This document shows positions 601 to 35,655 of a stretch of DNA of 36,636 nucleotides, in pieces. A program made the position numbers and the translations under genes. The stretch comes from a virus (Duplodnaviria > Heunggongvirae > Uroviricota > Caudoviricetes), in IMG/VR virus record IMGVR_UViG_2778261643_000013. One strand, written 5' to 3'. Position 1 is the stretch's first letter, and every line of letters starts with the position of its first letter. Below the pieces are notes generated by a model that worked only from the letters and a program-made list of their open reading frames with translations, made no database searches and was not told the DNA's origin.

Positions 601-624
601 AATTACCTCTCGCTTTTCTGCAAT

Positions 625-648
625 AAAAAAGGCGCCATTTCTGGCGCC
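625..648 (-). terminator. Intrinsic terminator after J (GGCGCC-AGAAAT-GGCGCC then T-run)
   Basis: 6-bp GC stem at 631-636/643-648, followed on the minus strand by TTTTTTATT. Confidence 0.6.
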
Positions 649-667
649 CGTATATGGGTTATAAAAT

Positions 668-3600: not shown

Positions 3601-4147
3601 TGCGCATCCGTATATTGAACGGGCGCGGCGGCAGGTTACCCACCACCACCGAGGCCAGATACTGCGAGGTGGTTTTGCCCTTAATGGTGATGTCTTTTTC
3701 CGTCACCCAGCCACCATTACGCTGGATCTGAACCAGCAGGCGGACTTCCGACGGATTCCGGTCCCCCTTTGAGGTGGTTTCCACCAGTGCCTGCACGCCG
3801 AAGGTAAAGCGCAGACGGTCGATGTTTGCAGACGTAATGGTGCGGGTGATCGGCGTGTCATATTTCACTTCCGTACCCAGCACCGTCTCGGAGCCGGAGG
3901 ATTCAAACCCCTCCGGCGGTGTCTGCTCCTGCTCACCGGCACGGAACACCACCGTGACACCGGAGATGTTGGTATTCCCCTCACTGTCCAGCACCGGCGT
4001 ACTGTTCAGCAGCACGCTTTTTAATCCATCCACCGGACCTTCAACCGGCCCTTCGCTGATGGCATCGATCACACTCAGCAACTGCGTGGACTTCAGGTTG
4101 TCCTTCGCTTCGCGCGGGGTATGCCCCTTACTGCTGCCTTTACCCAT
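668..4147 (-). CDS. J: Host-specificity / central tail fibre protein J
   Basis: 1159 aa; last tail gene before lom; ATG at 4147. Confidence 0.9.
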
Positions 4148-4170
4148 TCGTCATGCTCCATAAACGACAA

Positions 4171-4188
4171 AACCGCCCGGAGGCGGTT
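4171..4188 (-). terminator. Terminator-like hairpin between I and J (AACCGCC-TCCG-GGCGGTT)
   Basis: 7-bp stem with tetraloop and a short U-rich tail on the minus strand. Confidence 0.4.
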
Positions 4189-4207
4189 TCACATAAAACG
4201 TTTTTCA

Positions 4208-4855
4208 TCAGCGACCAATCACCACAACCTGACCACCATCACCTTCATCTGCCGTGCTGATCTCCTGAGATACCACCCGCGACCCCACACGCATTTCACC
4301 GTACAGAACGGGCAGGACATTGCCCTGGGCAACCATATTATCCAGTGAGGAGAAATAGGTGTTCTGTTTGCCGTTATCTGTACTGGCTGCCGTGGGCGTC
4401 CTGGCTTTCGGTGCCAGCATCTGCGCCACACCACCCAGGATCATACTGGCCCCTGCTGCATACATACCCGATACAGCCGCGGCCCCCAGCCAGCCCACAG
4501 GGTTCCACCATGCCACCGCAATCAGCGCCGCCCCCAGCACCACCTGAAACACACCGCCACTTTTAGCTCCCGCCAGACGCGGCACGATGTGGATCACGGC
4601 ACCATTTGCCAGCGGCTCATTAAGACGGGCAGACAATTCGGTTTCACCTGCATCACGCCCGGCAATGCGTACTTGGTACCAGCCGTCGCTCAGTTTCTGA
4701 CGAAACGCCGGGATCTGCATGGCCAGCGCCCGGATGGCTTCGGACCCCGTTTTCACTCGAAGGTCGATGCGGCGGCCAAATCGTTGCAAATCCCCGTAAA
4801 GGCAGATGCGTGCCATGCCCGGTGACGCCAGAGGGAGTGTGTGCGTCGCTGCCAT
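4208..4855 (-). CDS. I: Tail tip assembly protein I
   Basis: 215 aa; starts MAATHTLPLASPGMARICLYGD..., ends ...GDGGQVVVIGR as I recall for lambda gpI. Confidence 0.85.
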   Translation of the reverse strand: MAATHTLPLASPGMARICLYGDLQRFGRRIDLRVKTGSEAIRALAMQIPAFRQKLSDGWYQVRIAGRDAGETELSARLNEPLANGAVIHIVPRLAGAKSGGVFQVVLGAALIAVAWWNPVGWLGAAAVSGMYAAGASMILGGVAQMLAPKARTPTAASTDNGKQNTYFSSLDNMVAQGNVLPVLYGEMRVGSRVVSQEISTADEGDGGQVVVIGR

Positions 4856-5496
4856 TTGTCGGTGTACCTCTCTCGTTTGCTCAGTTGTTCAGGAATATGG
4901 TGCAGCAGCTCGCTGTCACCACAGTAAATGGCGGCATGATTCGGCACCGATGAACCAAAACAGCACAGCAGCACATCGCCCGGCTGCGCCGCTGACAACG
5001 GCACCTGATACAGCCCTGTGGCCTCCAGATTATCCAGATAGAGATTCTGACCGTTACGCCACCAGTCATCCCCGCGATGAAAATCCGGCATCTCAATCCC
5101 CGCCAGATGGTAAGCATCCCGGAACAGCGTGTAACAGTCCGTCACTCCGTGCTCAAAGCGCCGCCCGGTGAGATGCGGCACACAGCGGAATTTATGAATC
5201 TCACCCCGGCAGACCAGCCACCACGGCAAATTACTCTGCACCTGCAGCCGCCGATCGGCCTCACTCAGCCAGGGCAGACCACCGGGGTGGCTGTGGACCA
5301 GTGCCACAATCTCACCCTGCATCTCTGCCTGCAGCCAGTCCTCCGGAGCCATCCGGAAATAATCCTCCGGCTCACCGGAAATATTCACGCAGGGAAAATA
5401 GCTTTCCCCTTCCGGCGTGCTTACCACGAAGCCGCACGACTCCGCTGGCGCACATCGCCGGGCGTGCGCCAGAATCGCTGATTCTGTCTCTGTCAT
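4753..5496 (-). CDS. K: Tail tip assembly protein K (JAB/MPN plus NlpC/P60-like)
   Basis: 247 aa with HSHPGG JAMM-like motif and Cys/His NlpC-like motif; ATG at 5496; 3' end overlaps I by 103 nt. Confidence 0.8.
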   Translation of the reverse strand: MTETESAILAHARRCAPAESCGFVVSTPEGESYFPCVNISGEPEDYFRMAPEDWLQAEMQGEIVALVHSHPGGLPWLSEADRRLQVQSNLPWWLVCRGEIHKFRCVPHLTGRRFEHGVTDCYTLFRDAYHLAGIEMPDFHRGDDWWRNGQNLYLDNLEATGLYQVPLSAAQPGDVLLCCFGSSVPNHAAIYCGDSELLHHIPEQLSKRERYTDKWQRRTHSLWRHRAWHASAFTGICNDLAAASTFE

Positions 5497-5501
5497 GGGA
5501 T

Positions 5502-6200
5502 TTACTGCGAAAGTTTGTTAATGGAAAGGAAGCCGCCAAAGTTGCCGACGTTATTGCGAAACTTACAGCCGCTCAGGCATTTGCTGCATTTATCCTTCGT
5601 GATATCGGACGTCGGCTGGTCATATTCATCCGCAACCGCCGGACCGTGATAACCGCACTCATCACCGCGATAGGTCCAGGTGCAGGTGTTGGCCAGCATG
5701 GTACGTCCCGGAAAAACAGCACCATCCGTTTCCGTCGGCGTGGACAGTACAAAAGAGGCACTCACCGCGCTCAGTTCGCTGCACTGCTCGATGCGCCAGC
5801 GGCTGATCACCTCCTGCTCTGGATCGGCTTCGCTGTTTCCGTTGACGAAGTTCACCACATCCAGAAAACGGGCGTAAACCTTACGCCTGACCACCGTTCC
5901 GCCGACCAGACTCTGCAGGTCTTCCGCCATCCCGGTGACCATGCCGTGCAGATTAGAGACTTTCAGCGTTGGCCTTGCACTGGCTCCTTTGCCGTTCATC
6001 TCAAATCCACTTCCCTGAATGGGATAGGCCTGATACTGCCGCCCCTGCCAGGTGACTGGTTCACCTTTTTCGTTCTGCTCATTACAGAAGAAATAACGAT
6101 CTCCGCCGACCTCTGTCAGATCAATTTCCCAGAGCACGACCAGCGCGGATTGCTCCGTTTTAGTGCACTCATTGAGTGTTTCCTGCTGTATATCCTGCAT
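5502..6200 (-). CDS. L: Minor tail protein L
   Basis: 232 aa; MQDIQQETLNEC...SINKLSQ, near-identical to lambda gpL from memory. Confidence 0.9.
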   Translation of the reverse strand: MQDIQQETLNECTKTEQSALVVLWEIDLTEVGGDRYFFCNEQNEKGEPVTWQGRQYQAYPIQGSGFEMNGKGASARPTLKVSNLHGMVTGMAEDLQSLVGGTVVRRKVYARFLDVVNFVNGNSEADPEQEVISRWRIEQCSELSAVSASFVLSTPTETDGAVFPGRTMLANTCTWTYRGDECGYHGPAVADEYDQPTSDITKDKCSKCLSGCKFRNNVGNFGGFLSINKLSQ

Positions 6201-6541
6201 CAGTGAGTGACCTCTTCAAAGGTACAGTTAAAATCGGTATACATGGCATTATCCGAAATGCTCCACTCCCTGCAGACAACCCGGACAGTCCTGTTGTGTT
6301 TTGGCGGACGCCACAAAAAAGCACGAACCCCGGCATGACGGGATAAAAAACTGTCCAGCGCGGCACGGGAATATTCATCCGTGACACGAAATACCGGTTT
6401 AAATGTTTTCAGATCTGCATTCAGACCACCAGCCCGTCGCTGTTCATATCCGTCACCGAACTTTACCGTAATAACAGATGGCTTTCGTGTCGTCTCCATC
6501 CCCTCGCGGGGGATCCAGTTAAAAAATTCAGACTCAGGCAC
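6200..6541 (-). CDS. M: Minor tail protein M
   Basis: VRFGDGY-type motif (KFGDGYEQRRAGGLNA); GTG at 6541 preceded by GGAGG with 8-nt spacer; alternative ATG at 6499. Confidence 0.75.
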   Translation of the reverse strand: MPESEFFNWIPREGMETTRKPSVITVKFGDGYEQRRAGGLNADLKTFKPVFRVTDEYSRAALDSFLSRHAGVRAFLWRPPKHNRTVRVVCREWSISDNAMYTDFNCTFEEVTH

Positions 6542-9500
6542 TGCATAATCCTCCGTCCCGACGTGATGACTGCATAATTGACACAACCCTGCTGTCGATC
6601 AGATCCACCAGTCCCCTGGCTGACTGCGTATCTATCTCGCCATTGCTCCCTTTATTCTGAATACTGATGTGATATACGGGAGAATAAACAAATCCACCGC
6701 CACCATTCACATTACCAATGGCTCTGACTCCAAGAGAGCCGTCCGCTGCCCGAGTCAGTGGCATGATAGCTTCAGGCCCGGCCTCGCCCATCAGCCCGGC
6801 ACCTTTCGCAAAAGCAAAATACGTCGGGGTATCCACAATGGTGTTACTGTAAGCACTCAGATTTGCCGATGTATAAACACCACCTTTTGCGTTTGCCACT
6901 GCACCGGAAAGCCAGTCGCCGACTGTACCAAGCCATCCTCCGGCACCGGACATGCTTTTGGAAAGTGACTTCAGCCCGTTAACGATGGCAGCGTTCATCA
7001 GAATTTTTGAAACTTCCTGGAGAATTGAACTCCCCCAGTTTCTCCAGTCCACAACATTTCCGGCCAGTGCATCGGAAATATTTGATACCAGCCCGTCCAT
7101 AGTGGAAACGACAGCATCTGCCGCCTGCGAAGCATAATCGGTGGCACTGTCTGCCCAGTTCGTCAGTCCCTCCTGGAGTCCGGCATTCCAGTTACTGCGT
7201 AAAGCATCAGCCTTTGCATAATAATCCTGCTGATCGCTGAGACGCTCTTCCAGATATTTTTCATTCAGAGATTTTTCCTGTTTCCACAGGGCTTCTTCAA
7301 TTTCTCCGGCCTGATTCTGTCTCAGTAGCTCGTTATTTTTCTGCTCAAACTCCTGCCGGATGCTCCACATTTCCTGAAGTCGTTCACGCATCCGTGAGCC
7401 TTCACCATATCCCAGTAACTGAGCCTCATTTGATGCTCTGACACTGGCATTACTGTCCGCCAGACTGCTCTCATACGCAGCAAGCTGCTCACGAATCTTT
7501 TTCTGGTCGATGAGTGCTGCATTCTGCAAAAGCGTTTTTTTCTGCGCTTCTGACAGGGTTGATAATTCGCCCTGGCTGACCTGATATTTCATCTTAGCCA
7601 GTTCAGTATTCTGCCCTGCCAGTGCTATTTGCTCTTTTTGCTGTTTAATCAGTCGCTTATAAGTATCTTCTATTTTTTCCGCTTCGGTCTTTTTATGCGC
7701 TTTGGGTTTATTTGCCTGGTTATTTCGCCATGCATCCAGTGAGTTATTTATATAATTCAGTCTTGCTGTCTGATACGCCTCTCCCACAAAGCCGAGATCA
7801 TCCGCAGCATAACCCAGGCGGGCACGCTCACGGGCTTCCCCCTTCAGGCGGGACAGAGCCAGTTCGCGCTCGCTGTTATTCAGTGCGGTCTGCTGTTTAT
7901 CATCCAGGGTTGCCTGTGGTAGCCGTAACGGTACATTCACCAGCCCCTGTCGCTGCTGAAGTAATTCATTACCGAGCCCGAGAAGGCGATTAAACTCGGT
8001 ATGCTGCCCATTCATGATCAACAGGGACTGATACGCTTTGTTTTGTTCCGCTGCCTGTTGACGGATCAACGCCACCCGTCGCTCCTCCAGCCCGGCAAGC
8101 ACATCCTGAATGGATTGCGCTTTGCCCTGCATTTGAGTGAGGCGAGACTGTTCAACTGCCAGTTGATTTGTTGCTTCTGCAAGCCCTTCTGTGACAGTTT
8201 TTACCGACGTCATGTGGTTAATCATAAAACCGTTATCGGTTGTCCAACCCGGATTTGCCAGCACATACTGATAGCCAGCAATTTTTTCCTGTAAGGATTT
8301 AATCTTACTTTTCTGCTCGTCAATTAACCTGTTTTGCTCCTTCAGTGCCTGTCGCGTCTTTTCCTCATTATCTGACGCTTCAGGAAGCGACATTGCCGAC
8401 GTTTTCTGGCGAATTTCGTCGATTGTTGCGGCATACTGGCGTGCAGATTCTCTGGCCTGCTCCTGATTCTGATACATCGTGTACCAGGCCGCAGCCCCCA
8501 GCATGACGAGTCCCGGCACACCACCAACCAGCCCCAGCGCGCCACTTAATAAACGACTCCCCACTGACGTAACATTATTCAGCGTTGTCTGTGCCGCTGT
8601 TCTGGCCGCAATATTACGGGTAAGTGACGCCTGGGCAGCTGTCAGCTTCGCTTCTGCTGCGGCCTGCCTTTCGGTACCGCGAGCAGCAACAACCGCCTGT
8701 TGCGCACGATAAACCGCCGCACGCGCCCTGGCGGTTGCTATCTGTGTCCCCCGAAGTTGCACTTCAGCAAGAGCCACTTCGTTTCTGGCTGCAGTAATTA
8801 ATCCGGCAGTTGCAGATCCAGCAGACGACGCCATATTGCCAAAATATCGGGCTACCCCGACGGCAACCAGAGCACCGGCAGCGGTTGCCACGGTGTCAAT
8901 ATTGCCTGCAATACCATTCAGCACACCGGAGAGCGTCTTCGTCACTCCGCTTGCCTCGTTCGCACCACCAACCCAGGCCATAAAGGCGTTTTCAACTTTG
9001 GTTGCAGAGGATGAAACCGTATCAGGCATTGCCGCATATTCATCACGTAATGCCCCAAGCTGACTAATCAGTGCAGGAACAACCTTATCGGCGGTCAACT
9101 TTCCGTTATCCGCCATGGCCTTCAGATCCTTACGGGCAACTCCCATTCCCGCAGCCAGAGCACGAATAACACGATCGCCGTTCTCATTCACCGAGTTAAA
9201 CTCTTCACCGCGCAGCACTCCCTGCGCCAGAGCCTGACTGAACTGCGTGATCACCGAACTGGCTTCTGCTGTACTGGCACCGGATAATTTCAGGCCCGTG
9301 GAGATCGCCTCGGTGACTTTCAGTACCTCCTCAGAACTGTAACCATACTCCCGCATGGAAGCTGCAGAGCGGGCAAAAAGGCTGGCGTTATCAGAAAAAG
9401 CCGTCCCCGTTCTCTGGCTGATCGCCATTAATTCACGCTGTGATGACTGAAAATCATCACTGGACTGTGAGGCCTGCTTCAGACGGGCATTTACTGAATT

Positions 9501-9779
9501 CCACTCATCGGCGAGAGAAATAAGATGACCGGTAGCAAAAGCCCCGGCAAATGCCCCCGCCATATTCAGTGCCGAAGATTTAGCTGTATTTATCTGATCC
9601 GTCACTTCTGCCAGTGCACGCCGCATTTCACGGGATGCAGCAGCGGACTGTCGGCCTCCGTTCTGCATGGTACGGTAGTAATCCTGCCCCATACGCGAAG
9701 CCCGGGAGATCTCTGACTGGAATGACCGGGAATTTGCCGAGATTTTAATAATCAGTTCACGTAATGTCGCCACACTCAT
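6534..9779 (-). CDS. H: Tail tape measure protein
   Basis: 1081 aa, coiled-coil-rich with Gly/Ala-rich hydrophobic segments; follows G/T. Confidence 0.9.
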   Translation of the reverse strand: MSVATLRELIIKISANSRSFQSEISRASRMGQDYYRTMQNGGRQSAAASREMRRALAEVTDQINTAKSSALNMAGAFAGAFATGHLISLADEWNSVNARLKQASQSSDDFQSSQRELMAISQRTGTAFSDNASLFARSAASMREYGYSSEEVLKVTEAISTGLKLSGASTAEASSVITQFSQALAQGVLRGEEFNSVNENGDRVIRALAAGMGVARKDLKAMADNGKLTADKVVPALISQLGALRDEYAAMPDTVSSSATKVENAFMAWVGGANEASGVTKTLSGVLNGIAGNIDTVATAAGALVAVGVARYFGNMASSAGSATAGLITAARNEVALAEVQLRGTQIATARARAAVYRAQQAVVAARGTERQAAAEAKLTAAQASLTRNIAARTAAQTTLNNVTSVGSRLLSGALGLVGGVPGLVMLGAAAWYTMYQNQEQARESARQYAATIDEIRQKTSAMSLPEASDNEEKTRQALKEQNRLIDEQKSKIKSLQEKIAGYQYVLANPGWTTDNGFMINHMTSVKTVTEGLAEATNQLAVEQSRLTQMQGKAQSIQDVLAGLEERRVALIRQQAAEQNKAYQSLLIMNGQHTEFNRLLGLGNELLQQRQGLVNVPLRLPQATLDDKQQTALNNSERELALSRLKGEARERARLGYAADDLGFVGEAYQTARLNYINNSLDAWRNNQANKPKAHKKTEAEKIEDTYKRLIKQQKEQIALAGQNTELAKMKYQVSQGELSTLSEAQKKTLLQNAALIDQKKIREQLAAYESSLADSNASVRASNEAQLLGYGEGSRMRERLQEMWSIRQEFEQKNNELLRQNQAGEIEEALWKQEKSLNEKYLEERLSDQQDYYAKADALRSNWNAGLQEGLTNWADSATDYASQAADAVVSTMDGLVSNISDALAGNVVDWRNWGSSILQEVSKILMNAAIVNGLKSLSKSMSGAGGWLGTVGDWLSGAVANAKGGVYTSANLSAYSNTIVDTPTYFAFAKGAGLMGEAGPEAIMPLTRAADGSLGVRAIGNVNGGGGFVYSPVYHISIQNKGSNGEIDTQSARGLVDLIDSRVVSIMQSSRRDGGLCSA

Positions 9780-9788
9780 TCTCCGGAC

Positions 9789-9811
9789 GAAAAAAAACCG
9801 CCGAAGCGGTT
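9789..9811 (-). terminator. Terminator-like hairpin between T and H (AACCGC-TTCG-GCGGTT then T8)
   Basis: 6-bp stem with UUCG tetraloop and an 8-nt U-run on the minus strand. Confidence 0.5.
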
Positions 9812-9819
9812 ATGTTGAC

Positions 9820-10131
9820 TCACTGAGACACTATTAAAAGCGCGTTTTCCAGTCCAGCAAATGGATCTGATACGCCTTCTGTCTGCTCCTTCTCCCACTG
9901 AAGAAGCGCATCATTCAGTGGCACTTTGACCCCCTGCGCACCGTAAACAGCTGAAACAATCTGGGCAGCCCGGATATCAGCCCGTTCGTCCCCCAGCGGG
10001 CTGAATCTGTCAAATTCTGCCCACATCATGATTTCTGATGCGGACATTTCCCGGCGTAACTCTGACAATGTGCGCCCCATCCTGAGCGCCAGCATCATCA
10101 GAAAACGCATCCCCGGAAGCGCTACTTTTTT
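9820..10131 (-). CDS. T: T segment of the G-T tail assembly chaperone fusion (-1 frameshift product)
   Basis: 96-aa ORF one nucleotide out of register with G in the direction expected for a -1 shift; slippery heptamer at the end of G. Confidence 0.7.
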   Translation of the reverse strand, partial: KKVALPGMRFLMMLALRMGRTLSELRREMSASEIMMWAEFDRFSPLGDERADIRAAQIVSAVYGAQGVKVPLNDALLQWEKEQTEGVSDPFAGLENALLIVSQ

Positions 10132-10508
10132 TTAACCTCGCCGGCATCACTGATCAGTTCCAGAGACTGCCGAAGAAGCCGCGCATGCACCGGGCCATAC
10201 ACGGCAATCACCTGTTCACGATCATCCTCTGAAAATACAGGTTGCAGTCCGGTATCACACAGAACATCGATGAACAGTTCAACATCCGCTTCCAGATTTC
10301 GGCGGGCGCGCTCCGCAACGGATAACGGTGTCTCATCATCTTTTGCTTTAACGATCTCCTGCCAGCGCAACCAGGCTTCTGCAGAAGGTTCCCGTAATAC
10401 AACCGTTGCCCCTTCCCATTCAGGCACATCAACAGTTTTATGGCGAAACCCCGACATCGTTGCCAGTGCCAGATTACGGATATTTTTAGTCATCACATCT
10501 ATCCTCAT
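10122..10508 (-). CDS. G: Tail assembly chaperone G
   Basis: 128 aa between the major tail and tape measure genes; ends in the slippery site. Confidence 0.8.
   Translation of the reverse strand: MRIDVMTKNIRNLALATMSGFRHKTVDVPEWEGATVVLREPSAEAWLRWQEIVKAKDDETPLSVAERARRNLEADVELFIDVLCDTGLQPVFSEDDREQVIAVYGPVHARLLRQSLELISDAGEVKKK
10125..10131 (-). promoter_or_regulatory. Programmed -1 ribosomal frameshift slippery heptamer A-AAA-AAG
   Basis: G frame reads GAG GTT AAA AAA AAG TAG; slipping back one nt enters the T frame. Confidence 0.7.
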
Positions 10509-11212
10509 TAACTGACGGTAACAGTGCAGGAAGTAGAGGTCACCTTGTTAACAGGGCTTGCTGAATCAGAAATCTCGCAGGTATACGCACCGGCATCACC
10601 GGATGCTGCTGATGTCTTACTGAACGTTGCCGCCGTCTGTCCGGAAACAGGAGAACCACCTTTTTTCCAGGCATAAGAATAAGGCGGCACACCACCCGCA
10701 GCCTCAACCGCCATTTCAAGTTTCGCTCCGGAAGAAACCCGCAGCGTGCTTTTTAAATCGACCTTCACTTTCAGCGGCTCTGTCGTCAGCACAGGTTTAC
10801 CTTTCAGGCGCAGAGAAAACGTTGCAGCCACAACACCATTGGTTCCTGCAGACCAGGTATGCTGACGCACCTCTGCCATAAAGGTAAATCCGTTGCCTGA
10901 CGGAAAAATAACTTTAAAGCCATACGTGGTGTCATTGTCATAGGCACTGCGCAACGCGTTCTGGGCAGCATTCAGATAAAAGTTGCCTGACATGGAAATC
11001 TCTGAAGCAGCCCCAAGGCCGTTAATATTTTCCTGCTCAACAGAACACAGCGTGGTGACATCAATATCCTGCTTTTGTCCTGCGGTAAACTGCACCTCTT
11101 TGATTGTACAGCTCAGGCCAAGATAGCTGGCAGAATCCAGGGTTTCTGCTGTTACCGGTGCAGACGAAATCATAATTTTCGTCAGTTGCGAACGCTCAAA
11201 ATTAGAGGGCAT
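10508..11212 (-). CDS. V: Major tail tube protein V with C-terminal Ig-like domain
   Basis: 234 aa; position upstream of G/T; C-terminal GGVPPYSYAWKKGG...YTC motif typical of Big_2 Ig-like domains. Confidence 0.85.
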   Translation of the reverse strand: MPSNFERSQLTKIMISSAPVTAETLDSASYLGLSCTIKEVQFTAGQKQDIDVTTLCSVEQENINGLGAASEISMSGNFYLNAAQNALRSAYDNDTTYGFKVIFPSGNGFTFMAEVRQHTWSAGTNGVVAATFSLRLKGKPVLTTEPLKVKVDLKSTLRVSSGAKLEMAVEAAGGVPPYSYAWKKGGSPVSGQTAATFSKTSAASGDAGAYTCEISDSASPVNKVTSTSCTVTVS

Positions 11213-11224
11213 ACTCGTCTCCTG

Positions 11225-11252
11225 AAAATAATAAAACCCGCCAGCGGCGGGT
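11225..11252 (-). terminator. Terminator-like hairpin upstream of V (ACCCGCC-GCT-GGCGGGT then U-rich)
   Basis: 7-bp GC stem followed by TTTTATTATTTT on the minus strand. Confidence 0.45.
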
Positions 11253-11272
11253 GGGTAAAATCATTAATGACC

Positions 11273-11617
11273 TCAGGCTATTACCTGGAATTCAAGCGTG
11301 GCTCTGCTCAGACGGGAGTCAGGATCATAACCCTGCGTTTTAGAAATAACGGAGGGTGCCAGTTTTCTTACCGCATCAAGCGCCTGCTCACGAATATTAT
11401 CTGCGTCATCAGGTACTGTCGCCCAGACATCGATCTGCACGGTAATTCTGGATTCAGCCTGCCCATCAAGCACATCAGATGCCGTGTCAGACACCACAGA
11501 AAACACCAGCCACGGCGGAGATACCGCAGGCTTTCCCTCCGTCAGCGGGACCACATAAGGATAAACCTGTCCTCCGGCCAGCTGAGACAACAGGGAATAC
11601 AGTGTGCCCTCCCTCAT
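11273..11617 (-). CDS. Tail terminator / tail completion-like protein (lambda U position)
   Basis: 114 aa immediately upstream of the major tail gene; ATGA start/stop overlap with the upstream gene. Confidence 0.55.
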   Translation of the reverse strand: MREGTLYSLLSQLAGGQVYPYVVPLTEGKPAVSPPWLVFSVVSDTASDVLDGQAESRITVQIDVWATVPDDADNIREQALDAVRKLAPSVISKTQGYDPDSRLSRATLEFQVIA

Positions 11618-12060
11618 TTACTTAAGACCTCATCAATAGCCTGATTCATTCGCTGTATGGCAACCTGCGCCGCCAGCTCCTCTGTCGTATCGAAAGCCGG
11701 GCGAATGAATGGATGCGCGGGCATGTTTATCGTTCCCAGCTCCACAAAGCGCCAGTAAAATGCATTTCGGGGATCGCTGGCTTTCATGCTGTTATCACTG
11801 TTTCCGGTTCGCAGGTTCCGTCCGCGAATGTGGACACCCGAGATAATTTCCCCCCGACGCTTTGAACGCTGAGTGAGAACAACCACATTTTTCTTCAGTT
11901 TCCCGGTTCGCTCCGGCGCACGTTCAACAACTGCATCCCGCATAACTTCAGCACCGGCACGGGTGGCATCGCGCAGAACCTTATTGTTTTCTGCCCTGCT
12001 GAGCGTCTCCAAATCCCGTGCAATATCCGCCAGGCCGGAAAAATCAAGACTGAAATCCAT
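11614..12060 (-). CDS. HK97 gp10-family neck/tail attachment protein
   Basis: 148 aa; position between head-closure and tail-terminator genes; translationally coupled (TGATG). Confidence 0.55.
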   Translation of the reverse strand: MDFSLDFSGLADIARDLETLSRAENNKVLRDATRAGAEVMRDAVVERAPERTGKLKKNVVVLTQRSKRRGEIISGVHIRGRNLRTGNSDNSMKASDPRNAFYWRFVELGTINMPAHPFIRPAFDTTEELAAQVAIQRMNQAIDEVLSK

Positions 12061-18874: not shown

Positions 18875-19414
18875 ATGGATATTAAAGATAAAATCAATAC
18901 CATTTTGTTATGTGACATTGCCATCCACCTAGGTATCGAAACTGATATTGATCCACAGCTTGTTAAATATGCTGTGTCATCTGGTAATGATTGGGTTATC
19001 AAGGCCGAATATTCACATTTGGATGTTGACGAACCAAGTAAAGAAGATCGTGATTTTGTTACTGCTGTCTTGAATATGTATCGCGGACTTTCCAATACTT
19101 TCAGGAAACTTAGTGATGACGAGCAAAAAGAATTAGTCCGTGACCATCATCTAAAAATACATGATGGGGCAATTCAGCTCCCAGGTTTCGACGGTAATAA
19201 TGAATGCGATTACTTCAGTATCATTGAGGCGTATCAGAAATTTGATCGCTTCCCCGAACAGAAACAGCCCATTGCCAATACTCATTCACTTACAGAACAT
19301 CTCTATAACGCAATGCTTGATGAGTGTAAGAAAATTGACGCTGTAAATCGAAGCTGGGATTTATCGAAGGAAGAACTGGCATCCATTCTTTCCACAGCTC
19401 CACGCAGTTTCTAA
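18875..19414 (+). CDS. YfbU-family (UPF0304) protein, moron opposite to the late operon
   Basis: 179 aa; ATG at 18875 with GAGGG SD; AT-rich relative to flanks; resembles E. coli YfbU from memory. Confidence 0.7.
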   Translation: MDIKDKINTILLCDIAIHLGIETDIDPQLVKYAVSSGNDWVIKAEYSHLDVDEPSKEDRDFVTAVLNMYRGLSNTFRKLSDDEQKELVRDHHLKIHDGAIQLPGFDGNNECDYFSIIEAYQKFDRFPEQKQPIANTHSLTEHLYNAMLDECKKIDAVNRSWDLSKEELASILSTAPRSF

Positions 19415-21721: not shown

Positions 21722-21796
<75 letters not shown>

Positions 21797-21799
21797 ATA

Positions 21800-21875
<76 letters not shown>

Positions 21876-21877
21876 AC

Positions 21878-21954
21878 TGGACCGCCACCGGGGACTCGAA
21901 CCTCGCACACTCAACTTAAAGGGTTGACGCTCTTTCCTGATGAGCTAGTGGCGG
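21878..21954 (-). tRNA. tRNA-like gene of uncertain identity (anticodon loop CCUUUAA)
   Basis: 77 nt; perfect 7-bp acceptor stem, normal D and T arms, 5-bp anticodon stem; positions 34-36 read UUU but position 33 is C and discriminator is U. Confidence 0.55.
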
Positions 21955-21955
21955 C

Positions 21956-22031
21956 TGGTGGCCCTTGCTGGATTTGAACCAGCGACCTGGCGATTATGAG
22001 TCGCTCGCTCTCACCACTGAGCTAAAGGGCC
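21956..22031 (-). tRNA. ileZ: tRNA-Ile2 (anticodon CAU, ileX/ileZ-like)
   Basis: 76 nt; anticodon loop CUCAUAA; closely resembles E. coli ileX rather than elongator tRNA-Met. Confidence 0.75.
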
Positions 22032-24334: not shown

Positions 24335-24613
24335 TTACCTCCAGATGCGTTGCTGGAATGTGCGGGACGGACGCGGTGGGCGTTCGGAGTAAGGAAGCCT
24401 GACGGAGATTATCCAGTGACGGTAGTCGAGGCTGAGGGCTTTTTTAACCTCGTATCCGCGCCTGCGGTAACACTGAATTATCCATTCAGCCTGCTCTTCA
24501 GTGCATGGTGGATGCTGGAACCAGTCCGATTTGAATGCATGAAAACGCCGTCCGCACCTGCTGGCAAAGACGGCAGAATCATCAGAATTGTGTAATTTGG
24601 TATCGTGCGCCAT
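24335..24613 (-). CDS. Nin-region small protein (YbcO-like, tentative)
   Basis: ATG at 24613 chosen because the longer GTG-initiated ORF would translate through a terminator hairpin. Confidence 0.45.
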   Translation of the reverse strand: MAHDTKLHNSDDSAVFASRCGRRFHAFKSDWFQHPPCTEEQAEWIIQCYRRRGYEVKKALSLDYRHWIISVRLPYSERPPRPSRTFQQRIWR

Positions 24614-24685
24614 CGGTTGTCTCTGCTGGCGCAGCAGGTGCCAGTTGTTCAGGCTGGCGTGCGAATTGTAAACCAGAATGCCAGG

Positions 24686-24712
24686 AAAAAACAAAACCCG
24701 CCGAAGCGGGTT
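24686..24712 (-). terminator. Strong intrinsic terminator in the early-right operon
   Basis: AACCCGC-TTCG-GCGGGTT followed by TTGTTTTTT on the minus strand. Confidence 0.65.
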
Positions 24713-24780
24713 AAGTGCGGGTGCGTTGAGGATGCCTGACACATCAGAGGTGGCGAGGGATTTCTCCCCCGCCTGGTCTC

Positions 24781-24936
24781 TTACTCCTCAGGTTCGTAAG
24801 CTGTGAAGACAGCGACCTCCGTCTGGCCGGTTCGGATTCGTACCTCGCAGAGGTCTTTCCTCGTTACCAGTGCCGTCACTATGACGGTTAAACAGATGAC
24901 GATCAGGGCGATTAGCATCGCCTTTTGCTGCTTCAT
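24781..24936 (-). CDS. hokD: Hok/Gef-family type I toxin
   Basis: 51 aa MKQQKAMLIALIVICLTVIVTALVTRKDLCEVRIRTGQTEVAVFTAYEPEE; AAGGAG SD; single TM. Confidence 0.85.
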   Translation of the reverse strand: MKQQKAMLIALIVICLTVIVTALVTRKDLCEVRIRTGQTEVAVFTAYEPEE

Positions 24937-25170
24937 AGCCTGCTTCTCCTTGCCTTTCGGCACGTAAGAGGCTAACCTAGATTTGCCGTTCATAGATTGA
25001 GCCTCAGATTAATGTTAAGCGTCTTGCAGGACGCGTAATGTTAACTGGGGCTTTTCTCTATCTGCCTTTTGGTGTTCATGCCTGAGGCAGATAGCCTCAA
25101 GCACCCGCAGCAATTTTACTTAACTCCCGCTACCTCGCCAATATGAAATCAATAAGAAAGGTGCTCCATA
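24937..25170 (-). promoter_or_regulatory. hok mRNA leader / presumptive Sok antisense region
   Basis: In-frame upstream reading frame (mok-like) and a 9-bp stem (CTATCTGCC/GGCAGATAG) with 19-nt loop at 25058-25094. Confidence 0.4.
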
Positions 25171-25173
25171 AAA

Positions 25174-25860
25174 TCACTCCTTCTCTTCTTTACCGTAGTG
25201 GAGTTGACCAATTTTGATAAGAGGGCGTCCCTGAGATTTGCGGTGTAGATTGGTATCGCGCAGAGAATACACACAGCCACAATATTCCTGCTGATAGAAT
25301 TTTTCGCGCTTGCTGATTTCAATCATGCGGGACGAGCCGCCCTGCTTGCGCCAGTTATAATCCCAGTACACCATGCCCGGATAATGCGCGACGGCTCGCC
25401 GCCCACAGTCGTTAACCTGCTGCATATTTTTCCAGCGTGAAATGCCCAGTGAACTGCTGATCACACTGAAACCATTTTCAGCAGCGTACAGCGCTGTCCG
25501 CTCAAAACGCATGTCAAAACACATGGTACAACGGATCCCCCTCTCGGGCTCCCATTCCATTCCTTTGGCACGTTCAAACCAGTTGTCTGTGTCGTAATCA
25601 GCATCAATAAATGGCACGCCGTGTTGTTCAGCAAAGCGAATATTCTCATCCTTACGAATTAAATACTCTTTCTGAGGATGAATGTTCGGGTTGTAGAAAA
25701 AGATGGTATAGTCGATTCCCGAGGCCTGAAGCGCCTCCATCACTTCACCGGAACATGGAGCACAGCAAGAGTGCAGTAGTAGTTTGTTTGCCCCGTTTGG
25801 GAGCTCCAATTTAGGCCGTTTGAAATCAGCAATAGTCATAAATATTTTTATTGGGGTCAT
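25174..25860 (-). CDS. QueH-like protein (DUF208, epoxyqueuosine reductase family)
   Basis: 228 aa with [15 protein letters not shown] and YCGCVYS cysteine motifs typical of QueH; start codon uncertain. Confidence 0.65.
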
Positions 25861-26023
25861 GAAAATAGCACAGAGTGTAGCATCAGAGCAGGGCTATCGG
25901 GAATAGATGTCTAAATCTGGTAATATCTGCTTTTGACACAAAGCAGACAACCACGCTAGCTCAATCCTGTGCCGTGAAAATGTCAATTCACATCTGAACT
26001 AATGCTCTTTAATCGAGTAACGT

Positions 26024-26440
26024 CTATAAATAACGAAAATTTCTCTGATAAAATGCCAGTATGCGCTGCATAACTTCGCTCTTCCGGCACTCACAGCAAA
26101 TTATGTTTTGGTGCCTGTCATAACGACGTATTTCTCCGTCAGGTAATGACCAGATAAGGTCCGGATCAACCACAGATGGTTTCTTCACCTTTGCCCTAGA
26201 TAGTTTTTTACGGGCATTTTGCCAGTCCTTACGAGCCTGTTCAGACGGGAATAACCCGTAGCCAGAGTTGTATACATCGCCACTGGCAACCAGCTCTCTG
26301 GCCAGAACGCTCATCAGATATCTTGTTGCCCCAGTTTTAGCTTCCAGTTGTCGTAACGTCTCGCGCCCACTCTGGCGTACGAGTTCAAGAACCTGCCCTT
26401 TAATTTTTTCCCGCTCTTCTTGTGTAAAAACTTTTGCCAC
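26024..26440 (-). CDS. Hypothetical protein (138 aa)
   Basis: GTG start with AGGAGGG SD; contains CCEC motif. Confidence 0.5.
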   Translation of the reverse strand: MAKVFTQEEREKIKGQVLELVRQSGRETLRQLEAKTGATRYLMSVLARELVASGDVYNSGYGLFPSEQARKDWQNARKKLSRAKVKKPSVVDPDLIWSLPDGEIRRYDRHQNIICCECRKSEVMQRILAFYQRNFRYL

Positions 26441-26480
26441 AAGCCCTCCTGAAAATTACCTCATGACTAGAAATTAACAC

Positions 26481-27701
26481 TTACCCCCTGAAGCCCGGCG
26501 GAATTTCGTTATCCGGTTCAGAAATATGATTCACACAACGCTGGTTGTTCGTGCCGCTTACCGGGAGCAACCAGGGGTTCTCAAAATTCCGGTCCGGTCC
26601 AAAAAACGTCGTCGCTCGCTGAACAAATTCCGTTCCCGTTTTCCCGGTAGCCGCCAAGTATCTTGCGTAACGCCTCACGCCATCCAGCATGGCCTCTGGT
26701 GGCACCCCCTCGCGCAATCTGGCCTTCCAGGCACTGAATGCGGATTTCTTCGGGTTTGCCCCGGCACGCAACGGGTATTCCCGCCAGACCTGTTCGAACA
26801 CATCCGGATAATCCACTCGTCCCACAGGCCGCCCGGTGTTTTCCGGGACTACCCGATCGGCTTCCCGCTGAATGGCGGAATCGGCTTCAGGCTGCTGCAG
26901 TTGGTGTGATTGCTCCGGCCTTGCGGTCATCACCTGCTGCACAGCACCCGAATCGGCTTTCAGCGCATACGCTGAATCGGCTTCCGGTGTCGTGCCTGCT
27001 GGCTGACCAGGATTGACGGTCTGAACATCCCCTGCCTGGTTCGTGGTGTTTTTTTCGCCATGAACCATAGTGTTTTTGTCCTGTTCCTGTTCTTTCTCCT
27101 GCTCCTGTTCTTGGCTTCGAAGCCCCTTAAAAGCCCCTTCGAAGCCCCTTACCGAATTTCGGCTATTATTCCGCCTCACATCCAGATGGAAATCCGTTTT
27201 ATATCTGTCGTAAAACGCTGACAGAAAAGCGTTTTCAGGTAATGATGCATACTCATTCCTGACACCTGCACAACGGTTATCGCCAGGCTTCAACGTTTCC
27301 CCAACCTGCCAGGCTGCCATTTCATGGACCCAGACCATCTCGGCATCATGGTCATAGCTACAAAAACCAGCTTCAACAGCCATTTTAAGCCCCTTTGAAG
27401 CCCCTTCCAGACCAAGCCCGGTTTCATGAGCAAGGTATAAAACTGGCAGGTAATACAAACCCAGCATATTTGCGTGAGGGGATGTCATCAGGTAAAAAGC
27501 AACAACTTGCGCTTCTGCACCCGCCTTTCTAAGTTCTCTCCCCGTTTCTCCCAACCAGAATCGCGGAGAAACTTTTGCGTAATCACGCATGGCTACCTCA
27601 TCTGGTGCCGAACCTTCCTCCGGATATAATCTGTGGTTCCCAATCGACAGAACCAGAGGAGGTTCGACATGTATTTTTTGAAAAGCCTTTATCAGGCTCA
27701 T
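26481..27701 (-). CDS. Putative replication initiation / replisome organiser protein
   Basis: 406 aa in the slot after cro/cII-like genes; internal acidic EQEQEKEQEQ linker and repeated GFEGAFKGL peptide motifs; no Walker A. Confidence 0.45.
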   Translation of the reverse strand: MSLIKAFQKIHVEPPLVLSIGNHRLYPEEGSAPDEVAMRDYAKVSPRFWLGETGRELRKAGAEAQVVAFYLMTSPHANMLGLYYLPVLYLAHETGLGLEGASKGLKMAVEAGFCSYDHDAEMVWVHEMAAWQVGETLKPGDNRCAGVRNEYASLPENAFLSAFYDRYKTDFHLDVRRNNSRNSVRGFEGAFKGLRSQEQEQEKEQEQDKNTMVHGEKNTTNQAGDVQTVNPGQPAGTTPEADSAYALKADSGAVQQVMTARPEQSHQLQQPEADSAIQREADRVVPENTGRPVGRVDYPDVFEQVWREYPLRAGANPKKSAFSAWKARLREGVPPEAMLDGVRRYARYLAATGKTGTEFVQRATTFFGPDRNFENPWLLPVSGTNNQRCVNHISEPDNEIPPGFRG

Positions 27702-27807
27702 GTATTAAATGTTACAGCAACAAACCGCTGGTGTAACAGCCCCGAAATGCTCCCGGATTACAGAGCCTGGCTGCGCGCCGAAACATACCTTCGTCTCGAC
27801 ATATTGA

Positions 27808-28317
27808 TTAGCGAACTTCAAAAAGAGACTGCATCCATTCATAACCTTCAGGGTATCGACGCTGTTCGCATTCTGGTGTCGCGCCATAGTGCTCTCTCAA
27901 TAATTGAAGTGCGTCATCTCTCTTTTTCTGAACTGATTTTCTTGCTTCAACCAGCTCTGGAATCAGCGAATATCCCACCGGAAGTGATCCAATACCCACC
28001 TCATGTTGACGAGCAGTTACAAGATGTGCCATACAACCAGCGTGCTGGATTGACTCCCTGCTCAGAGGCTGAATGGGATCACTCTCTGCTGAAGAAATAC
28101 CAAGATTTGTATAATCCTCAATAAGCCCGGCACACGCTTCTGCATCAGCCAGCTTTATTCTGGTTTCCTTGCGCTGTTCTCTGGCTGACAAACGCCAGAG
28201 CAGCGCATTAGCTTTATGTATCAACCACTCTGCCAGCTCCACATCAGATAAACCGCCACGCCAGATGTGCGGACTGTTTTCGTAAACGCTCAGTGTCAAT
28301 TTTTTGTCATTACTCAT
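27808..28317 (-). CDS. Hypothetical protein (169 aa)
   Basis: ATG at 28317 just after the stop of the upstream gene; the longer ORF starts with GTG inside that gene. Confidence 0.45.
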   Translation of the reverse strand: MSNDKKLTLSVYENSPHIWRGGLSDVELAEWLIHKANALLWRLSAREQRKETRIKLADAEACAGLIEDYTNLGISSAESDPIQPLSRESIQHAGCMAHLVTARQHEVGIGSLPVGYSLIPELVEARKSVQKKRDDALQLLREHYGATPECEQRRYPEGYEWMQSLFEVR

Positions 28318-29543: not shown

Positions 29544-29735
29544 ATGAATAGAGCCCTTTCACCAATGGTTTCTGAATTTGAAACCATTGAACAAGAAAAC
29601 AGTTACAACGAATGGCTGCGTGCGAAAGTAGCAACGAGCCTTGCAGATCCGCGCCCAGCAATTCCCCATGACGAAGTTGAGCGCAGAATGGCAGAACGCT
29701 TTGCTAAAATGCGCAAGGAACGGAGCAAGCAGTAA
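29544..29735 (+). CDS. Type II antitoxin (ParD/RelB-like)
   Basis: 63 aa; strong SD GGAGGA; ...WLRAKVATSLADPRPAIPHDEVERRMAERFA... antitoxin-like. Confidence 0.6.
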   Translation: MNRALSPMVSEFETIEQENSYNEWLRAKVATSLADPRPAIPHDEVERRMAERFAKMRKERSKQ

Positions 29736-29736
29736 A

Positions 29737-30015
29737 ATGTTACCCGTGTTATGGCTTGAAAGCGCAGATACCAACCTAGATGATATAACTAGTTATATTG
29801 CTCGTTTCGACATAGATGCGGCTGAACGCTTATGGCAGCGATTAAGGGGTTGTGTGCTGCCGTTATCCGAACATCCGTATTTATACCCACCAAGCGACAG
29901 AGTACCTGGCTTGCGTGAGATTGTAGCCCACCCTAACTATATAATTCTATACCGCGTAACAACATCAAGCGTTGAAGTAGTAAACGTGATCCACGCAAGA
30001 CGCCAGTTTCCCTAA
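29737..30015 (+). CDS. Type II toxin (ParE/RelE family)
   Basis: 92 aa starting 1 nt after the antitoxin stop; ...GLREIVAHPNYIILYRVTTSSVEVVNVIHARRQFP is ParE-like. Confidence 0.65.
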   Translation: MLPVLWLESADTNLDDITSYIARFDIDAAERLWQRLRGCVLPLSEHPYLYPPSDRVPGLREIVAHPNYIILYRVTTSSVEVVNVIHARRQFP

Positions 30016-31404: not shown

Positions 31405-31593
31405 ATGAAAACGTTATTACCAAACGTTAATACGTCTGAAGGTTGTTTTGAAATTGGTGTCACTATCAGTAATCCTGTATTTACTGAAGATGCCATTAAC
31501 AAAAGAAAACACGAACGGGAGTTATTAAATAAAGTATGCATTGTTTCAATGCTGGCCCGTTTACGTCTGATGCCAAAGGGATGTGCACAATGA
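31405..31593 (+). CDS. Small protein (62 aa)
   Basis: ATG at 31405 with GAGGG SD; AT-rich. Confidence 0.45.
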   Translation: MKTLLPNVNTSEGCFEIGVTISNPVFTEDAINKRKHERELLNKVCIVSMLARLRLMPKGCAQ

Positions 31594-34374: not shown

Positions 34375-34578
34375 ATGAGCAGCTTATTTTTAACCGAAGA
34401 TGAATTGCTAATATTAACGGGCTGCAAATATGCAAGCCACCAGCGAAAATGGTTAATGGAAAACGGGCTTCCGTTCTATACCAATCGTAGTGGCAAACCG
34501 ATTGTCAGCCGGGATCTATTTACCTGCAATAAAACTTTACCACCACGCGAGGTAGAGCCGAATTTTGGTGCGATCTGA
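34375..34578 (+). CDS. xis: Excisionase-like protein
   Basis: 67 aa immediately upstream of int with ATGA overlap. Confidence 0.6.
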   Translation: MSSLFLTEDELLILTGCKYASHQRKWLMENGLPFYTNRSGKPIVSRDLFTCNKTLPPREVEPNFGAI

Positions 34579-35603
34579 TGGGAAGACGAAGGAAAAATCC
34601 TGAACACGAAAAATTACCTCCAAATGCATACCCAAATAAATATAGTTATGTATGGAAACCAACATCCAGAGAATCTGTCACACTAACCGCCATCAAGGAT
34701 GGTTTAGCTGCTTTATGGAAAAAGTATGAGGAAACTGTAAATAATCGCGATCGTGCAATGACATTCGGTCGCTTGTGGGAAAAATTCCTCGCCAGCGCCT
34801 ATTACAGTGACCTTAGTCCAAGAACACAAAAAGATTATCTGCAACATCAAAAAAAGTTGCTTGCCGTATTCGGTAAGGTACCAGCGGATTCCATAAAACC
34901 AGAACACATCCGTCGATACATGGACAAAAGAGGGGAGCAGAGTAAAACACAAGCCAACCATGAAAAAAGCAGTATGTCCCGTGTTTACAGTTGGGGGTAT
35001 GAGCGAGGGTACGTCAAGGCTAACCCATGTGCAGGTGTAAGTAAATTCAAGGCCAAAAACCGCGAACGATATGTAACCGACAAAGAATACCAGGCAGTAT
35101 TAAGCGTTGCACCTCTTCCTGTTTTTATCGCAATGGAAATTGCCTATCTGTGTGCAGCGAGGGTTTCCGATGTGTTATCGCTGAAATGGGAACAGATTGG
35201 AAACGACGGGATATTCATCCAGCAAGGGAAAACCGGAAAAAAACAGATAAAAGCATGGAGTCCACGATTACAGGCAGCGATCGAAAAAGCAAAACAGTTA
35301 CCAAAATCTGCCTATGTGATCAGCAATCAATACGGCAACCGATATATGTACAAAGGCTTTAACGAAATGTGGGTAGAAGCAAGAAATCGTGCTGGAAAAA
35401 TTTCAGGTATTTTAACCGACTTCACCTTTCATGATCTGAAGGCGAAAGGAATTTCAGACTATGAAGGAAGCAGCCGGGATAAGCAACTTTTCTCTGGTCA
35501 CAAAACCGAAGGGCAAGTGCTAATCTATGACAGGAAGGTTAAAGTTTCACCAACACTTGATGTCCCGTTACCTGAAAATATTCCAAGAAAATATTCCAAG
35601 TAA
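34578..35603 (+). CDS. int: Tyrosine-type site-specific integrase
   Basis: 341 aa; catalytic ...ARVSDVLSL..., ...HDLKAKG..., ...VLIYD... ; adjacent to the tRNA 3' end. Confidence 0.9.
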   Translation: MGRRRKNPEHEKLPPNAYPNKYSYVWKPTSRESVTLTAIKDGLAALWKKYEETVNNRDRAMTFGRLWEKFLASAYYSDLSPRTQKDYLQHQKKLLAVFGKVPADSIKPEHIRRYMDKRGEQSKTQANHEKSSMSRVYSWGYERGYVKANPCAGVSKFKAKNRERYVTDKEYQAVLSVAPLPVFIAMEIAYLCAARVSDVLSLKWEQIGNDGIFIQQGKTGKKQIKAWSPRLQAAIEKAKQLPKSAYVISNQYGNRYMYKGFNEMWVEARNRAGKISGILTDFTFHDLKAKGISDYEGSSRDKQLFSGHKTEGQVLIYDRKVKVSPTLDVPLPENIPRKYSK

Positions 35604-35655
35604 TTCCAAGTGTGATTTTTGTCACTGACTTAATGATGTGTAAGTGATTGAATTT

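Follow-up and report, generated by a model that had tools for sequence, protein, structure and literature searches.

Why should a prophage of Escherichia coli encode a second enzyme for a reaction that its host can already perform? The question is raised by a 36,636-nt stretch of caudoviricete DNA (IMG/VR record IMGVR_UViG_2778261643_000013; "the window" hereafter means this whole stretch, as analysed), which contains queH, a gene for an epoxyqueuosine reductase of the QueH type. In queuosine synthesis, the tRNAs for Asp, Asn, His and Tyr receive preQ1 at position 34 through Tgt, QueA turns this base into epoxyqueuosine (oQ), and the epoxide is reduced to queuosine (Q) by either QueG or QueH (PMC5372724). 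The QueG step is cobalamin-dependent; E. coli makes oQ-tRNA, and queG mutants accumulate oQ (PMC4646009). QueH requires iron and not cobalamin (PMC13443448; PMC9508795). We consider it probable, from comparison of sequences, that the prophage gene codes for a functional QueH. It would have been taken up from the chromosome of an enterobacterium, and would be carried as an accessory cassette that is transcribed by itself and gives B12-independent completion of queuosine.

The open reading frame (ORF) extends over 25174..25860 on the minus strand and comprises 228 amino acids when counted from its first ATG. The first-pass annotation of this locus, made from the letters of the DNA, had given this ORF without its strand and had recognised its product as QueH-like (DUF208), and both points hold. 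In a search with hidden Markov models, the product matched the Pfam family QueH/DUF208 (PF02677) at E=1.9e-65 with 220.6 bits against a cut-off of 23.5, over profile positions 1-174 of 175. The sequences of crystallised Thermotoga maritima QueH matched residues 27-203 at E=5e-22 in a PDB sequence search. At 25174..25839, the coding sequence (CDS) of RefSeq and the Prokaryotic Genome Annotation Pipeline (PGAP), WP_021554705.1, is named 'epoxyqueuosine reductase QueH' and has 221 amino acids. A search of NCBIfam with the queH product gave no match, which speaks neither for nor against the Pfam assignment.

The difference in length concerns the start codon. When upstream regions were aligned, the second ATG (25839) was present in 14/14 copies. 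At the first ATG (25860), ATT stands instead in E. hormaechei, the O7:H15 allele and the plasmid-borne genes of Salmonella and Klebsiella, and in strain AR_0085 a 1-nt indel lies between the two ATGs, the CDS being annotated as intact nonetheless. Because the second ATG is universal and the first is lost or separated by an indel in some copies, the queH protein is taken as 221 amino acids plus stop, encoded at 25174..25839 (minus strand) from the conserved start. The seven in-frame codons from the non-conserved first ATG (25840..25860, minus strand) are probably 5′ untranslated leader and not coding. Judged by its sequence, the prophage gene is a genuine member of the QueH family, full length and intact. 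The queH product also matched PHROG 3217 at E=1.9e-138, a family labelled 'unknown function' that spans residues 41-228 only. This profile begins at residue 41 and so is without the CCAPC motif, and several database representatives begin at the same internal Met. The late start is probably a start-codon miscall that conceals the QueH identity from phage annotation pipelines.

The cysteine signature named by the first-pass annotation was found at residues 30-36 (H30-S-C32-C33-A-P-C36), 111-114 (C111-T-M-C114) and 194-196 (C194-G-C196). Its conservation was examined in an alignment of 65 family representatives with no more than 50% identity between any two. C32, C33, C111, C114, C194, G195 and C196 are invariant across 65/65 of these diverse sequences. 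Position 36 is Cys in 61/65 and Asp in 4/65, among them Asp13 of T. maritima QueH; the prophage protein has the majority state. According to the titles of their PDB entries, C9S and D13N mutants of the T. maritima enzyme have been crystallised, and C9 and D13 correspond to C32 and C36 here. The metal site of QueH comprises a [4Fe-4S] cluster and an adjacent iron, with which oQ34-tRNA is reduced to Q34-tRNA. An AlphaFold2 model built with 26 homologues had a mean predicted local distance difference test score of 73. When this model was compared with the PDB by Foldseek, the top five matches were all T. maritima QueH, with template modelling (TM) scores of 0.75-0.78 normalised to the target, and the next matches were TtuA, LarE and TilS, distantly related PP-loop enzymes, with TM scores of at most 0.36. 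The predicted fold is that of QueH, with a core like that of adenine-nucleotide alpha-hydrolases.

Among 5426 complete E. coli genomes, queG was found in all (5426/5426) and queH in 995 (~18%), nearly always as a single chromosomal copy, so that every carrier of queH has both genes. The earlier remark that E. coli normally uses QueG agrees with these counts. The queH copies cover at least 80% of the gene in 985 of the 995 genomes (99%), and 39 of 40 copies sampled across the ranking were annotated as intact; strain CH4784 has a truncated queH in a decayed prophage locus. Carriers include 042, APEC O1, ST131, HUSEC2011, O104:H4, and O157:H7 and O111 isolates. At the DNA level, HannyBb is the only one of 50,697 phage records to carry queH, annotated there as 'hypothetical protein'. 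Matches by tblastn in the phage collection were mostly unannotated metagenomic 'Bacteriophage sp.' fragments or oversized records, and they were excluded as evidence of phage carriage. The gene was also found on 20 plasmids, 15 of them conjugative. It adjoins fecC/fecE iron-dicitrate transport genes and IS481 on the Salmonella IncFII plasmid pCFSAN024441_02 (locus L096, 4992-5660), and TonB fragments and IS3 on the Klebsiella pneumoniae plasmid p90CM2-172k (locus L097, 4988-5656). The gene of an Fe-S enzyme thus sits with iron-uptake cargo on conjugative IncF plasmids.

To delimit the DNA that travels with the gene, positions 24700-26500 were compared by blastn with other prophage alleles and with chromosomal copies. 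Downstream, homology stops at 25167-25171, right at the queH stop codon; upstream, it stops at 25888, 25904, 25910 or 25963, varying with the comparison partner. These breaks define a mobile cassette of ~0.8 kb (25168..25963), made up of the CDS and about 45-125 nt upstream of it. With the copies from E. hormaechei and Scandinavium, DNA homology is confined to 25889-25904 through 25167-25170. The queH genes of the window and of the Rac-like prophage of E. coli 042 are 100% identical, but the adjacent DUF977 genes have diverged (synonymous divergence, dS, 0.17). The two prophages are otherwise different phage types with different integration sites. Identity of queH beside divergence of DUF977 therefore shows recombination at the cassette edge, and indicates recent lateral exchange of the queH cassette between unrelated lambdoid phages.

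Outside Escherichia and Shigella, the closest relatives are the queH products of Enterobacter, Scandinavium and Kluyvera, with 86-91% amino acid identity, and further relatives occur in Serratia marcescens (88%), Kosakonia (86%), Providencia/Proteus (83-86%), Erwinia (about 80-86%) and Pantoea (about 78-85%). The genes next to queH in the prophage (DUF977, hok, DUF968, RusA and Q) were found within 5 kb at 0/78 of the queH loci from outside Escherichia and Shigella. Two Enterobacter loci are ringed by regulators and metabolic enzymes, the Providencia gene adjoins tmcA, purC and dapE-like genes, and the Photorhabdus gene also lies outside any phage. In a neighbour-joining tree without bootstrap, all alleles from Escherichia, Shigella and phage form one clade nested within the Enterobacteriaceae copies. 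The closest non-Escherichia copy, that of E. hormaechei B56 (locus L018, 4181-4885), has a 234-amino-acid ORF of the phage-integrase family directly upstream and metabolic neighbours otherwise; even the 'chromosomal' copies of queH may sit on small mobile islands.

Within the prophages the coding sequence has changed little at the protein level. Between prophage queH alleles, the ratio of nonsynonymous to synonymous divergence (dN/dS) is 0.02-0.04, with dS up to 0.47 and dN of at most 0.018 over 186 aligned codons. The adjacent DUF977 gene of the same loci gives 0.05-0.15. These ratios argue that queH is kept as a working protein by very strong purifying selection, tighter than that on the neighbouring phage gene.

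Does the cassette drive its own transcription? With the end of the DUF977 ORF at 26024, there remains upstream of queH the 163-bp gap that the first-pass annotation had given correctly and in which it had noted a promoter-like sequence. A conserved candidate extended -10 element, TGcTACACT, does lie in this gap at 25882..25874 on the minus strand; a scan for sigma-70 consensus -35/-10 pairs returned no promoter on the queH strand there, and the sequence first noted was probably a different site. The element stands 34 nt upstream of the conserved ATG in the window, and its spacing is fixed at 34-37 nt across copies. The form TGCTACA(C/A)T is kept in 13/14 phage, plasmid and chromosomal copies, with CGCTACAAT in one copy, and it is conserved even in chromosomal copies with otherwise unalignable flanks. 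The pattern TGNTACAMT occurs twice in the window against 1.8 occurrences expected; because this is not above chance, the argument for a promoter is made from conservation only. From it we infer that queH can be self-transcribed in a lysogen, besides read-through from the phage early operon. A perfect TTGACA at 25986..25981 was rejected as part of a promoter, as no acceptable -10 follows 16-18 nt downstream and the site lies outside the conserved cassette. Control by a riboswitch was likewise rejected: Rfam searches of 24500-26500 showed only sok/hok-related matches, and no preQ1 or cobalamin riboswitch.

Taken together in one mechanism, a cassette of ~0.8 kb with its own extended -10 promoter would have been captured once from the chromosome of an Enterobacteriaceae relative. 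It would now circulate by recombination among the mosaic lambdoid phages of Escherichia and Shigella, always in an accessory slot after the replication module. In the tRNAs for Asp, Asn, His and Tyr, its product would reduce the oQ of position 34 to Q. Because QueG needs cobalamin, which E. coli is not known to synthesise de novo, the prophage gene would give a B12-independent route, and the lysogen, as well as any phage growing in that lysogen, would gain cobalamin-independent completion of Q. Retention of both QueG and QueH by Staphylococcus aureus has been read as a hedge on cofactor supply (PMC13443448). Carriage of the same gene by plasmids points to a host benefit rather than to a phage-specific role such as the manipulation of tRNA modification that the first-pass annotation had suggested. 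We infer enzymatic activity of the product, transcription in the lysogen from the conserved -10 element and a benefit under B12 limitation. A wider claim is made tentatively and may well not hold, namely that phages and conjugative plasmids spread self-transcribed queH as a lysogenic-conversion gene which uncouples queuosine completion from B12.

Several points weigh against this explanation. Corrinoids are often present in the gut, so that the size of a B12-sparing benefit is uncertain. No established phenotype separates oQ from Q, and deletion of queG left growth unchanged in the single reported condition (PMC11841063). The candidate promoter consists of the conserved extended -10 only, with a poor -35 (TTCCCG). 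From the queH stop (25174) to the hok promoter no terminator was found, the sole one in 24600-26500 being at 24712..24695, and queH is oriented as the rightward early operon, so that it may be transcribed mainly by lytic read-through. The queH tree, on which the single capture is drawn, carries no support values.

The last of these transcriptional points leads to the rival reading that survives best, which we nevertheless regard as unlikely: that queH serves the phage. With delayed-early expression, the enzyme would convert oQ-tRNA to Q-tRNA during lytic growth, and the phage would benefit from better decoding of NAU/NAC codons or from altered susceptibility of its tRNAs to anticodon nucleases such as colicin E5-type toxins and tRNA-cleaving defence systems. 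Both orientation and position of queH, between the replication genes and Q, match the rightward early operon, there is no terminator between DUF977 and queH, the viable isolated phage HannyBb carries the gene, and immunity directed at tRNAs puts the phage lineage under pressure. The NAU fractions of the prophage, 54-64% (Asp 64%, Asn 54%, His 60%, Tyr 54%), are unremarkable and were judged close to those typical of E. coli, and codon usage was rejected as support for a translational role. As for nucleases, colicin E5 has been cited as aimed at Q-containing tRNAs, but cleavage by AriB, the tRNA-cleaving PARIS defence nuclease, is independent of tRNA modifications (PMC12409363). PADLOC gave no match for QueH or five neighbouring proteins, and a role as a defence system was rejected. 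A phage-specific role is also unnecessary for maintenance of a gene that occurs on conjugative plasmids and at ordinary chromosomal loci, and the conserved promoter element accompanies queH irrespective of phage context.

The first-pass annotation had connected queH with the cluster of phage tRNAs in the same prophage. Queuosine is confined to tRNAs with GUN anticodons (those for Asp, Asn, His and Tyr). The anticodons of the four phage tRNAs are CAT, TTT, TGT and TCC, none of them GUN (0/4). This connection is therefore abandoned, and the cluster is not the substrate pool of QueH. AriB attacks tRNA-Lys and tRNA-Thr foremost (PMC12409363), and the cluster has both. The anticodon arm of the phage tRNA-Lys (tRNA region 21722-22031, minus strand), tcaac-CCTTTAA-gttga, is unusual: numbered by hand, position 33 is C and not U, and positions 39-41, the site of AriB cutting, are GUU and not UCA. 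The phage tRNA-Thr retains the UAAUC|A site. The phage tRNA-Lys may be a nuclease-resistant replacement tRNA.

It is very improbable that the protein is a QueH-fold enzyme repurposed for another substrate, a reading close to the repurposed Fe-S enzyme of the first-pass annotation. Such a substrate might be a 7-deazaguanine base of the phage's DNA, or else some other epoxide or nucleoside. Phages are known to use the early queuosine pathway for DNA modification (PMC6884629), and queH adjoins genes of DNA metabolism. Set against this, the PGAP annotation of 12000-36636 and Pfam scans of the remaining ORFs revealed no other queuosine-pathway gene in the prophage, and no DpdA/TGT-type transglycosylase, FolE, QueD, QueE or QueC; a role in DNA modification was rejected on this absence of DpdA/TGT and preQ0 genes. 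Every invariant residue is retained, identity to other Enterobacterales QueH is 78-91%, the four relatives whose loci were checked are non-phage, and the low dN/dS leaves no sign of a relaxed or diversifying phase. Least probable of all is that queH is neutral or decaying cargo, hitch-hiking with the replication module and of no use: many of the host prophages do look defective (a frameshifted integrase in a close relative, the truncated queH of CH4784), but this is effectively refuted, as queH is under stronger purifying selection than the phage gene beside it, with dS reaching 0.47; further, 99% of the E. coli copies are near full length, and the cassette moves independently of the genes around it.

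If the wider, tentative claim of a lysogenic-conversion gene spread by phages and plasmids holds, QueH would be the first enzyme of tRNA-queuosine maturation to be recognised among phage cargo. Lysogens would keep fully matured Q-tRNA under corrinoid scarcity. The same might apply, more speculatively, on loss or repression of the B12 receptor BtuB, through which E-type colicins and some phages also enter, and sensitivity to nucleases that attack Q-family tRNAs might conceivably be altered. Queuosine affects the decoding of Asp, Asn, His and Tyr codons, and its last step in E. coli has been regarded as strictly B12-dependent. With a working prophage enzyme, queuosine formation would be free of B12 in about 18% of sequenced E. 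coli, a strain difference that is invisible in K-12-based work and is relevant to studies of tRNA modification, to competition for corrinoids in the gut and to codon-biased translation.

The enzyme itself is an ordinary QueH, already correctly named in RefSeq; its genomic setting appears to be undescribed. Our literature searches found no paper on a phage-borne QueH, an earlier mention in the primary QueH papers being possible. A 2019 survey of viral 7-deazaguanine genes found no QueA, QueG or QueH homologues in the viruses analysed, and the present locus corrects the view that viral genes of the pathway are restricted to its early (preQ0) part (PMC6884629). It also exposes a gap in annotation, visible in the 'unknown function' of PHROG 3217 and the 'hypothetical protein' of HannyBb.

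The surroundings of queH confirm that the gene lies in a prophage, as the first-pass annotation had it. Positions 12000-36636 are identical to a prophage of E. coli NS-NP030 annotated by PGAP, and positions 1-12000 contain the lambda-like tail genes J, I, K, L, M, tape measure, T, G and V. The head module is of HK97 type. The prophage, a lambdoid one, is integrated at tRNA-Ser(CGA)/mtfA. The integrase beside tRNA-Ser(CGA) is frameshifted in the annotated twin genome, and excision of the element may be impossible. The genes of the minus strand are, in order, a cro-like regulator, a YdaT-family gene, a replication 'DNA-binding protein', DUF977, queH, hok/sok, a small ORF and DUF968, followed by RusA, the Q antiterminator, the four tRNAs and lysis genes. 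The placement of queH in an early region thus stands as far as the rightward operon is concerned, and can be made precise: the gene occupies a slot between the replication module and DUF968-RusA-Q.

The upstream border of this slot is conserved. The DUF977 gene (26024..26440, minus strand; Pfam DUF977, E=1.4e-29) is the last of the replication module. It was found upstream of queH in E. coli 042, NS-NP030, O7:H15 ST70, 95-3322, ST131 2822, O157:H7 Z1811 and AR_0085, in E. albertii and in Shigella, and its counterpart in phage HannyBb bears the annotation 'Ren-like exclusion protein'. In ten prophage contexts from Escherichia, Shigella and E. albertii, and in HannyBb, the replication module ends in a DUF977-type gene that queH follows, either directly or with a small ORF or a methyltransferase remnant in between. 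The replication, Q and head modules differ among the queH prophages, one of which is a Rac-like prophage at ttcA with RecET.

The downstream side is variable, the next gene being hokD, an NgoMIV-type restriction-modification pair or a DUF1971 gene. In the window, the hokD/mok toxin gene and the sok antisense RNA region (24781..25106, minus strand; HOK_GEF, E=3e-23) lie directly downstream of queH. The Rfam match to sok covers 24931..25106 (114 bits, E=1e-26), a promoter-like site for hok is found at 25141..25113 on the minus strand, and a terminator follows hok at 24712..24695. A complete hok/mok/sok type I toxin-antitoxin locus (24781-25141) thus begins right after the queH stop. In O157:H7 Z1811 (locus L008, 1806-3816), an NgoMIV-family restriction endonuclease and a cytosine methyltransferase replace hokD, and in O7:H15 ST70 the DUF1971 gene fills the slot. 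The place behind queH is a hot spot where accessory or defence cargo collects.

Elsewhere in the prophage, a RelB/RelE toxin-antitoxin pair and dicB were found (features at 29544-30015, 31405-31593 and 34578-35628). Two genes on the plus strand run against the direction of the surrounding operon: a YfbU-family gene (18875-19414) between an HNH endonuclease and the lysis cassette, and a gene for an 'ECs1072 family phage-associated protein' (27669-28124) inside the replication region. Both are possible further cargo; where scanned, they had no Pfam or PADLOC assignment.

How does this gene compare with known systems? The QueH of T. maritima (PDB 7LC5/7LC7/9DEU) has the same full-length domain, the same predicted fold, the CC...CxxC...CGC set and a similar length. 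It is about 30-35% identical to the prophage protein and differs in having Asp13 at the place of C36. The prophage protein has an extra conserved basic C-terminal tail of ~25 residues, which is common to other Enterobacterales QueH, and it is encoded by a prophage instead of a chromosomal locus. The nearest comparison is with these Enterobacterales enzymes (Enterobacter, Kluyvera, Scandinavium, Erwinia, Providencia and Photorhabdus), which are 78-91% identical to it in amino acid sequence; Enterobacteriaceae copies share the upstream element TGnTACA(A/C)T with the prophage gene. The Enterobacterales genes that were checked lie among metabolic or core genes, whereas the Escherichia/Shigella clade is located between DUF977 and hok/sok in lambdoid prophages. 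QueG (YjeS) performs the same reaction on the same tRNAs (PMC4646009) but is dependent on cobalamin as well as on [4Fe-4S] clusters, and its fold is unrelated to that of QueH. In E. coli, moreover, queG is core (5426/5426) and queH accessory and mobile (995/5426).

As an insertion, queH resembles the morons of lambdoid phages: it is a discrete insertion between conserved modules, with sharp homology boundaries and a candidate promoter of its own. A non-phage origin, and a slot that holds toxin-antitoxin and restriction-modification cargo in related phages, add to the likeness with moron and lysogenic-conversion genes; it differs from morons in that no flanking terminator was found. Phage clusters for 7-deazaguanine modification of DNA (DpdA with FolE/QueD/QueE/QueC) likewise place queuosine-pathway genes in phages. 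These clusters use the preQ0 branch and a DNA transglycosylase; the prophage has neither, and carries only the last, tRNA-specific step. The third likeness is to pairs of enzymes by which a cofactor is bypassed, such as QueG and QueH of S. aureus (PMC13443448) and QueD and QueD2 (PMC9508795), in which two enzymes, non-homologous or paralogous, serve one step and are retained because their cofactors differ. E. coli differs from these in acquiring its second enzyme by horizontal transfer on prophages and plasmids, and only about 18% of its genomes carry it.

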